Source of the DNA: a virus
Lineage: Duplodnaviria > Heunggongvirae > Uroviricota > Caudoviricetes
IMG/VR virus record: IMGVR_UViG_2563366883_000011
Length of the DNA stretch: 25,186 nt
Strand: one strand, 5' to 3'
Part shown: one piece after another, positions 11,056 to 12,424 of the stretch
How positions within the stretch are numbered: position 1 is the stretch's first letter
Layout of the letters: the number at the start of each line of letters is the position of its first letter
Made by a program: the position numbers and the translations under genes
The notes under the pieces: model-generated
Database searches by the model: none
What the model was told of the DNA's origin: nothing
What the model saw: only the letters and a program-made list of their open reading frames with translations

Positions 11056-11451
11056 TTACCGAGTTGCTAATTTGCAACTCGCTTTTTCGTACTTACTGAT
11101 AGTGATCTCGACCTTCCCTTCCGGGATAACCGGTCCCCACTCCACCAGCATTCTTTTCACCTGGCTGTCGTCTTCCCACACACCCGCGTGGGTCAGGGCG
11201 TCAAACAGCGCCTTGTTATAGTTGTCCAGATCGCGGATCCGGTTATCCGGAGGAAACAACACGATCTCCACTGAAGCAGGTGCCGACGTTGGTTTCGGCA
11301 GACGACGTAACTGCTCAACTATTGCTGCACACGCCGCGCTCTGGAATTTTCGCCCCGCCGCGCTTATCAGGCTCTTACCAGCAAACGCCCCTTTGTTAGG
11401 GTGTCGCCAGTACGTGTTCACGCTGGGCGGAAAAGGCAGTATTAGCTTCAT
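11056..11451 (-). CDS. rusA: RusA-family Holliday-junction resolvase
   Basis: 131 aa, MKLILPFPPSVNTYWRH ... DLDNYNKALFDALTHAGVWEDDSQV, the characteristic RusA pattern with catalytic Asp cluster. ATGA overlap with the upstream gene. Confidence 0.85.
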   Translation of the reverse strand: MKLILPFPPSVNTYWRHPNKGAFAGKSLISAAGRKFQSAACAAIVEQLRRLPKPTSAPASVEIVLFPPDNRIRDLDNYNKALFDALTHAGVWEDDSQVKRMLVEWGPVIPEGKVEITISKYEKASCKLATR

Positions 11452-11774
11452 ACTTTCAGGCCCCTCTCATGTAACCAGTGGGTTGCACGCAGCCTTGCGT
11501 TTTCCTCACCGGCAAGCAGTGCGCGGATAATCCCGACCGCCTCGCTGTCGTCGTCCTTCATCGCAGTATGAAGCGTTATCCCCCGGGCCACGCCACGCTT
11601 TATCGTGATGACGCCTTTTTTCTCCAGTGCGCGAAGATGCTCCACCGCTGCATTCACCGAACGGTATCCCAGCATGGTTGCCACCTCCTGATTGGTTGGC
11701 GGGAAGCCACGTTCTTTCTGATAAGAAATCAGCATATCCAGCACCTGCTGCTGGCATTGAGTTAATGTCGTCAT
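11448..11774 (-). CDS. LexA-like winged-helix DNA-binding domain protein, lacking the S24 peptidase domain
   Basis: 108 aa. The N-terminal 70 aa track the LexA DNA-binding domain (QQQVLDMLISYQKERGFPPTNQEVATMLGYRSVNAAVEHLRALEKKGVITI vs LexA ...[51 protein letters not shown]). No Ala-Gly cleavage site or Ser/Lys dyad follows. Confidence 0.6.
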   Translation of the reverse strand: MTTLTQCQQQVLDMLISYQKERGFPPTNQEVATMLGYRSVNAAVEHLRALEKKGVITIKRGVARGITLHTAMKDDDSEAVGIIRALLAGEENARLRATHWLHERGLKV

Positions 11775-12424
11775 GCCGCCATCTCCCTGACCAGTTTTTC
11801 CGCCTGCTGGCGAGCCTGCGCCAGAAATGCCTCACCACATGCCTCAAGTTCATCGCGCCCGATGTAGCTGATTGCCGCTCCCTTCCAGGTCTTGTCGAAA
11901 ACAGCAATAGCACCAGCGAAGAAAGCACCTGTTGGCACCTGCTTTTCGTCTTTCGGGATAAACCAGGCTGGCAGTTCAAAACCAATACGCCCGCGAATAA
12001 AAGCAATATGATCTGCATCTTCCGGCCACCACACTTCGCTGGTGGCCGCTTTGATCAGGAAAACATAGCGCCCGCCTTTATCACGCATGGCACTGGCATG
12101 CTTCATGATGTAACGCATGCCGGTGATGTATTGTCCCTCATGCTGACTGGCGCGGCTGTACGGGGGATTACCAAAGGCAGCACCTTTAAGCTCCGCAAGA
12201 CGTTCTGACCAGTCATGTGCCAGCGCGTTGTCTTCCGCCGTGTAATACGCGGCACATTTGGCGTTATCACCGTCAGTAAACAGATCCAGAACAAACGGGC
12301 CAAACAGGGTGTTAATTCCCCAGAAAATGTTGTCCGGCGTGCGCCACTGATCGCCCACTTCCTTCAGTTCATGGGCTGGTTTGTTCCGTAGTTCCACCAG
12401 CGCCTGGCAATATTTATTACTCAT
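11771..12424 (-). CDS. Phage N6-adenine DNA methyltransferase (Dam-like orphan MTase)
   Basis: NPPY catalytic motif (AAFGNPPYS). ATG at 12424 overlaps the upstream stop (TAATG); the ORF track extends to 12457. Confidence 0.8.
   Translation of the reverse strand: MSNKYCQALVELRNKPAHELKEVGDQWRTPDNIFWGINTLFGPFVLDLFTDGDNAKCAAYYTAEDNALAHDWSERLAELKGAAFGNPPYSRASQHEGQYITGMRYIMKHASAMRDKGGRYVFLIKAATSEVWWPEDADHIAFIRGRIGFELPAWFIPKDEKQVPTGAFFAGAIAVFDKTWKGAAISYIGRDELEACGEAFLAQARQQAEKLVREMAA

Follow-up and report, generated by a model that had tools for sequence, protein, structure and literature searches.

Here we describe a gene for a truncated LexA-like protein in a tailed-phage sequence from IMG/VR (record IMGVR_UViG_2563366883_000011), analyzed over its whole length of 25,186 nucleotides (nt), hereafter the window. 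The window is a lambdoid prophage of the mEp460/SfII/Stx2 type (Stx, Shiga toxin), with an identity of ~96% to mEp460, SfII, PhiR49_1 and a number of Stx2 phages. The gene lies on the minus strand (11448-11774) and encodes a protein of 108 amino acids (aa), for which we use the working name LexL. In coding order it is preceded by genes for a PerC/YfdN-like protein (12424-12918, minus strand; PF06069, E = 4.5e-9; phrog_1324) and for Dam, an orphan phage N6-adenine DNA methyltransferase of 217 aa (11771-12424, minus strand; PF05869, E = 6.4e-45; TIGR01712), and is followed by rusA, which encodes the RusA Holliday-junction resolvase (11056-11451, minus strand; PF05866, E = 6.4e-15). The LexL/Dam region is 100% identical to that of E. 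coli CP55_Sichuan.

All four genes are joined by stop/start overlaps: TAATG for the PerC-like gene and Dam (12422-12426), ATGA for the TGA of Dam and the ATG of LexL (11771-11774), and again ATGA for the TGA of LexL and the ATG of rusA (11448-11451). The start of Dam is set at the ATG at 12424, because annotated homologs use that ATG (654 nt in mEp460); a GTG at 12457 is the start of the mechanical open reading frame (ORF) only. The original prediction, made from the sequence alone, located the ORFs exactly, its domain calls agree with the Pfam profiles, and it correctly described an overlap of LexL with rusA. On the Dam side it had the direction reversed, stating that the stop of LexL overlaps the start of the methyltransferase gene, whereas Dam lies upstream and its stop overlaps the LexL start.

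LexL consists of a winged helix (residues 1-70), a linker (71-75) and two tail helices (73-88 and 93-103). It covers the whole LexA DNA-binding domain profile (LexA_DNA_bind, PF01726, positions 1-65 of 65, E = 2.9e-19) and matches the LexA N-terminal domain in the PDB (E = 6e-16), with the HMMER alignment to LexA ending by residue 90. An AlphaFold2 model of the protein (predicted local distance difference test score, pLDDT, 84) superimposes on the LexA-DNA complex 3JSO with a root-mean-square deviation (rmsd) of 0.9 Å over 68 residues at 50% identity (Foldseek), which bears out the earlier view that the protein follows the LexA N-terminal winged helix. LexL is a LexA-type winged-helix DNA-binding domain protein without a peptidase.

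The primary base contacts for readout of CTGT in the LexA crystal structure are S39, N41, A42 and E45 (PMC11442139), and LexL retains all four, together with the winged helix and the RGI wing of the E. coli LexA N-terminal domain (1LEA, 3JSO). Conservation was counted over 120 distinct homologs from 150 related loci: S39, N41, A43 and the wing R64-G65-I66 are present in all 120, A42 in 117, and the E45 position is E or D in 93. The inspection of DNA-contacting residues proposed with the original prediction therefore finds the crystal contacts kept, not lost, and the only contact replaced is that of Glu44 in a model based on nuclear magnetic resonance (NMR), to which we return below. The idea of a LexA mimic stands after this check, with binding to SOS-type boxes predicted from the sequence and the model.

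The S24 peptidase domain (PF00717/Peptidase_S24) gives no Pfam match in LexL, which ends at residue 108, and the protein scores 70.4 bits against the lexA equivalog model TIGR00498, below its cut-off of 110.95 bits. HMMER aligns Ala88-Gly89 of LexL with the scissile Ala84-Gly85 of LexA (LLAGE with VAAGE). Only 8 of the 120 distinct homologs retain the Ala (variants include AK, AN, VG and TR, among others), and in the model the Gly sits in the turn between the two tail helices; Ala88-Gly89 is therefore not a conserved scissile bond. A vestigial LexA site cut in trans was also considered, and was dropped since the Ala is not conserved. The original description of LexL as having no cleavage site or peptidase domain is accordingly right about the peptidase and needs qualifying for the cleavage site, where an Ala-Gly pair is present but not conserved. 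Lacking both the S24 peptidase and a conserved Ala-Gly, LexL cannot undergo RecA*-stimulated self-cleavage and, like the non-cleavable LexA(Ind-) mutants, is not open to inactivation by RecA*.

In place of the catalytic/dimerization domain of LexA, LexL carries its own amphipathic two-helix tail of ~35 aa. The helices are predicted at pLDDT 80-90 and are separated from the DNA-binding domain by the low-confidence linker (71-75); the tail is conserved to ~40% identity, with hydrophobic positions kept (A97, L101, L86/L87). Pfam searches with the isolated tail returned only a sub-threshold match to NIL (E = 0.009). An architectural analogy can be drawn to BlaI/MecI- and MarR-type repressors, in which an N-terminal winged helix is combined with C-terminal dimerizing helices. 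Full-length Foldseek matches of LexL to Rv1846c, MecI and MepR are weak (E = 0.007-0.03, rmsd 7-11 Å), there is no sequence relationship, and the DNA-binding domain of LexL is of the LexA type. From the model we infer that the tail hairpin replaces the LexA C-terminal domain as dimerization element.

LexL matches phrog_362 ("transcriptional repressor") over its full length (E = 1.2e-59, with residues 1-108 aligned to all 106 profile positions) and is 95-99% identical and structurally alike to members of this group from mEp460 (gp46), SfII (SfII_44), SfV, cdtI and Stx2a, Stx2c and Stx2k phages. The protein clusters contain thousands of members, named "LexA family transcriptional regulator" by PGAP/NCBI. 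Of 5426 complete E. coli genomes, 1662 (at least 31%) contain the Dam and LexL segment at a coverage of at least 80%. Among deposited phages, LexL is found in 60 records, which represent Escherichia, Shigella, Klebsiella, Salmonella, Edwardsiella and Hafnia and include the isolated phages mEp460, SfII, SfV, SfIV and cdtI. Homologs range from 98% down to ~40% identity in hundreds of prophage loci, and 110 of the 120 distinct sequences are 106-108 aa long. Conservation to ~40% identity over hundreds of loci, with invariant DNA-binding residues, places the gene far beyond chance. The family is already catalogued and functionally uncharacterized, and counts among the phage-encoded truncated LexA homologs; literature searches for functional or experimental studies of it gave catalogue entries only (e.g. 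Pham 237, Stx phages).

Annotation of the family is uneven. Some records label LexL "SOS-response repressor and protease LexA" or "RecA-mediated autopeptidases", despite the absent peptidase domain, and Dam homologs are miscalled "phosphoadenosine phosphosulfate reductase" in RefSeq phage records and in phrog_33262. Three entries of 179-185 aa (P0025, P0092 and P0098) combine a Dam fragment (PF05869) with LexA_DNA_bind in one ORF, and probably reflect a deletion or frameshift spanning the ATGA junction rather than genuine fusion. The global protein set also contains other architectures with a LexA DNA-binding domain only (P0132, P0155, P0161, P0163; P0141, P0165, P0191), which have either two tandem LexA DNA-binding domains (141-164 aa) or a bare domain of 69-78 aa without a tail.

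The enzyme encoded upstream of LexL scores 254.4 bits against TIGR01712 (cut-off 97.05) and contains FGNPPYS in its translation. The earlier assignment to an orphan Dam-like NPPY methyltransferase is confirmed, with PF05869 and TIGR01712 above cut-off and the NPPY motif present. It is an orphan in that its neighbors are the PerC-like and LexL genes, with no cognate restriction endonuclease adjacent. Its target is presumably GATC, as expected from characterized relatives.

The surroundings of LexL were compared in loci obtained by seeding IMG/VR with distant LexL homologs (40-62% identity) and classing neighbors by tblastn and Pfam; the homolog P0209, used as a seed, gave no viral loci. The first set comprised 150 enterobacterial LexL loci from about six lineages, and is therefore a small independent sample. 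Four arrangements, given in coding order, recur in it: PerC, MT-A70, a 75-aa ORF, LexL and RusA (61 loci, and several more partial ones); PerC, Dam (often with a C-terminal extension), LexL and RusA (~32 loci); PerC, Dam, a C5-cytosine methylase, LexL and RusA (~15 loci); and PerC, LexL and RusA (~11 loci). A later set adds the P0160 lineage, in which a D12-class Dam lies directly upstream of LexL. The slot at or near the 5' side of LexL (e.g. L016 5091-5780, L005 2126-4006, L097 4823-6004, L179 3159-4052) is filled by PF05869 Dam (in some cases with a 180-aa C-terminal extension), MT-A70, C5 or D12-class Dam enzymes, singly or paired, or by none. In relatives the gene directly 5' of LexL can also be a small ORF, or a PerC-like gene without a methylase, as in the E. 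coli prophage L002, where the stop of the PerC-like gene abuts the LexL start. In E. coli K-12 strains this locus is reduced to a yfdM (Dam) fragment beside yfdN.

Downstream of LexL, RusA is found in 149 of the 150 first-set loci, mostly with an overlapping stop/start. In some loci orf221 or sm67 is inserted between the two genes, and in the distant P0139 lineage a 67-aa ORF takes the place of RusA, with or without a different RusA-like protein. This lineage has no methylase directly adjacent to LexL, although roughly half of its loci have a C5 methylase a short way upstream. The conserved unit is a PerC-like gene, zero to two methyltransferases of any family and LexL, followed by RusA, DUF968 and Q; what does not vary is that LexL sits in the nin region, ahead of DUF968 and Q and right after the variable methyltransferase slot. 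Since four unrelated enzyme families or none fill this slot, we argue that LexL is not a dedicated Dam subunit. Its link to Dam is positional and facultative, Dam being one filling of the slot and not half of a two-gene system. The coupling of LexL to an orphan N6-adenine methyltransferase in the original prediction therefore holds for the overlap in the window, and fails as a dedicated pairing, given an upstream gene that varies and a RusA that is nearly constant.

The remainder of the early-right operon, also on the minus strand, comprises, upstream of the PerC-like gene, an O-like replication protein gene (12915-13898), a small ORF (13895-14194), a Rha/Ash antirepressor region (14412-15563) and a CII-like gene (15560-16117), and is divergent to a cI-type repressor gene (16468-17160, plus strand). 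Two Rfam matches lie on the minus strand inside the mechanical ORF 14412-15563, namely C4 antisense RNA (15015-15102, 82 bits, cut-off 45) and isrK (15127-15203, 62 bits, cut-off 50). They indicate that the Rha/Ash antirepressor gene is preceded by a control region of the P1/P7 immI antisense-RNA type, and that its real start is further downstream. On the other side, rusA is followed by a 150-nt gap (10906-11055), a KilA-N domain gene (10078-10905, ATG at 10893; PF04383, E = 1.3e-15; phrog_129), an ORF without a Pfam match (9547-10062), a DUF968/HNH gene (8548-9537) and the Q gene (8138-8545; PF06530), all on the minus strand. Further along, a minus-strand gene (4704-6683) encodes a 659-aa protein with DUF1737, a SASA sialate O-acetylesterase domain and DUF6645.

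The window contains three perfect CTGT-N8-ACAG sites, two of which are strong SOS (LexA) boxes. One of these, CACTGTTCATAAATACAGTA (10991-11010; 16 of 20 positions matching the consensus), lies in the 150-nt gap that follows rusA, ~80 nt before the start of the KilA-N gene. Most relatives lack this gap: 186 of the 5426 E. coli genomes have it in full, and in mEp460 it is missing, with rusA directly abutting the KilA-N gene. On sequence grounds the KilA-N gene may be a LexA-controlled cassette of the regulator/antirepressor type, and the box a candidate local target of LexL. A terminator-like hairpin with a T-run lies nearby within the last codons of rusA (11060-11081, plus strand). Homology to mEp460-type phages ends there, at window position 11083, so that the hairpin coincides with a mosaic junction. 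Between the 10991 box and the hairpin, a short plus-strand transcript under LexA control might be made.

The other strong box, TACTGTATGTAAAAACAGTA (16677-16696), has 9-nt perfect arms and is located inside cI, in the part encoding the hinge between the helix-turn-helix and S24 domains. The box is close to the consensus, and its CTGT-N8-ACAG core is retained at this place, amid varying flanks, in diverged cI alleles of mEp460, SfII and several IMG/VR prophages; counterparts are found at L001 11129-11148 and L004 29167-29186, and in L028, L030, L038, L044, L075 and L097 the cI box lies ~3.5-4.5 kb upstream of LexL. The box-bearing diverged alleles encode proteins of 231-233 aa where ORF starts are clear. 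This pattern in the sequences points to selection on LexA binding within the cI gene, where it might create a roadblock or act at an internal or antisense promoter; we found no published description of an SOS box inside cI. In related loci totaling 1.7 Mb there are 13 occurrences of ACTGT-N8-ACAGT, where ~2 are expected, and the enrichment is seen at a spacing of 8 only; host LexA is thus clearly wired into some of these phages. A separate SOS box, CACTGTTTATTTTTACAGTA, is present in mEp460 (L001 2078-2097), where it overlaps the first codons of gp53. This gene, located past the Q-like gene in the late region, codes for a second DNA methyltransferase (350 aa, with a DPPY motif) and belongs to mEp460, not to the window; the position of the box implies a putative LexA-controlled methylase.

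The related loci rule out, as a general feature, a conserved SOS-type operator close to LexL; such a site is limited to the variant in the window (10991-11010). Should LexL recognize SOS boxes, it would therefore in general have to act on host boxes, as no local box is conserved.

These features are brought together in the reading that LexL is a RecA-insensitive surrogate of LexA, acting on CTGT-type operators in lytic growth as a dimer held by its tail, which we put forward tentatively as a real possibility and as the best supported of the readings considered. LexL would be a delayed-early (nin-region) DNA-binding protein derived from the LexA N-terminal domain, translated from a polycistronic message shared with Dam and RusA, between the replication genes and Q. 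Unlike LexA, it is phage-encoded, in a lytic early operon and not autoregulated. Its location in the early-right operon suggests that its synthesis would begin only once the prophage is derepressed or a cell is infected, a stage at which the host LexA is often already destroyed. The tail would dimerize the protein, the dimer would bind SOS-box-like operators, and the non-inducible surrogate would re-impose repression on the host SOS regulon and, in the window, on the boxes at 10991-11010 and 16677-16696. More speculatively, LexL might be placed to damp SOS signaling provoked by the adjacent methyltransferases and nucleases (RusA and HNH). In a wider version LexL, carried by about one in three E. 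coli genomes or more, would be a general viral SOS off-switch that re-represses the host SOS regulon and LexA-boxed phage genes during induction or infection, and would thereby shape induction dynamics, also those of Shiga-toxin phages and of co-resident prophages with LexA-controlled antirepressors; this version we regard as unlikely.

Several observations weigh against a LexA surrogate. SOS boxes matching at least 15 of 20 positions occur in only 13 of 152 sequences, none matching at least 14 of 20 were found from -3.5 to +3 kb of LexL in the 150 related loci, and a consensus scan found no sigma-70 promoter beside the 10991 box, manual candidates there (TTGATA-17-TAAGTT, minus strand) being weak. 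Within the DNA-binding domain, the E45 position is A, S or T in 27 of the 120 homologs, P40 of LexA is V in LexL, and Glu44, a contact in the older NMR-based model, is Val here and never Glu in the family (A, T, V or F). The specificity of LexL may have drifted as a result of these three changes. The dimerization step, moreover, is inferred from the modeled tail.

Such drift is central to the proposal that LexL is a regulator with altered specificity that recognizes a non-SOS phage palindrome and activates or represses a phage promoter, for example in the timing of Q, late genes or KilA-N, instead of targeting the SOS regulon of the host. Its precedent, which serves the LexA surrogate as well, and the closest characterized relative in kind of LexL, is gp6 of the Bacillus phage GIL01, a truncated phage LexA homologue that is a site-specific transcription factor (PMC6182141). 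Like LexL, gp6 is a phage-encoded LexA DNA-binding domain without a catalytic domain; it is expressed early in the lytic program, and host LexA is likewise tied into the switch of its phage. It has evolved a distinct site, the palindrome GaCACAn nTGTGaC, which it reads through an altered recognition residue (K38), and it activates the late promoter P3 (PMC6182141). A regulator of this kind would fit the absence of a canonical SOS box near LexL in most phages, the differences at recognition-helix positions 40, 44 and 45 between LexL subfamilies, and the divergence of LexL (40-50% identity), which exceeds that of RusA (70-80%) and DUF968 (~63-66%) in the same loci, as expected of a specificity determinant. 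However, the residues that gp6 changed for its new specificity are positions that LexL keeps (S39 and N41 invariant, A42 in 117 of 120), and no alternative CTGT/ACAG palindrome with spacings of 0-14 is positionally conserved beyond coding-sequence identity, nor was a suitable inverted repeat found in the tightly packed LexL operon. In addition, gp6 is mostly a bare winged helix (PMC6182141), whereas LexL retains the LexA contacts and adds a helical tail, and in the lambdoid nin region the expected late activator is Q, not LexL. We consider a gp6-type role somewhat unlikely, though worth keeping in view.

The gene order itself invites another explanation, in which LexL is a nucleic-acid-binding accessory that would either target RusA or set the substrate of the adjacent methyltransferase, the latter as PNB-2 does for the MT-A70 enzyme of phiPA8. 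There, a prophage methyltransferase gene is likewise co-transcribed with a small winged-helix gene, and the winged helix-turn-helix partner turns the phage methyltransferase into a 16S rRNA methyltransferase (PMC10810198). The stop/start overlaps of LexL with both Dam and rusA, the near-constant RusA directly 3' of it in enterobacterial loci, and the methyltransferase directly or nearly directly 5' in most loci agree with an accessory role. A specific protein-protein fit, on the other hand, is hard to reconcile with an upstream enzyme that belongs to four unrelated families or is absent, with orf221 or sm67 lying between LexL and RusA in some loci, and with the lack of RusA in most of the P0139 lineage; that LexL has diverged far more than RusA argues against tight physical co-evolution of the two, and RusA is widespread without LexL, e.g. 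in DLP12. The parallel with phiPA8 is also limited. PNB-2 (MLKQIAF...) is a different protein that is not LexA-like, its gene lies upstream of that of its enzyme and in another genome module, the enzyme is MT-A70 and not PF05869 as in the window, and the pairing of LexL with a methyltransferase is facultative. LexL as a PNB-2-like subunit of the Koudelka rRNA methyltransferase was rejected, because the N-termini deduced from primers (MLKQIAF, MMTTQVS) and the enzyme class, MT-A70, identify a different module, leaving an analogy only. Overall, an accessory role appears improbable. Still further from the evidence is a functionless, decaying remnant of a captured lexA: LexL is truncated relative to LexA and several database entries are fragments or Dam-LexL fusions, but its length is conserved, its DNA-binding residues are invariant, its tail is kept to ~40% identity and it recurs in 60 phage records. 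This conservation pattern effectively refutes a dead remnant, to which we give next to no credence.

Whatever the function of LexL, the picture of a dedicated LexA-Dam pair is corrected to that of a gene 3' of a variable methyltransferase slot and 5' of RusA. If LexL binds SOS boxes as a surrogate of LexA, a very common prophage gene would override the DNA-damage response just when the host repressor is destroyed. Its carriers include Stx2a, Stx2c and Stx2k phages and Shigella serotype-converting phages. Binding of this kind would affect the way in which "LexA" annotations in prophages are read, and would bear on the induction of Shiga-toxin phages, competition between co-resident prophages and SOS mutagenesis in lysogens.

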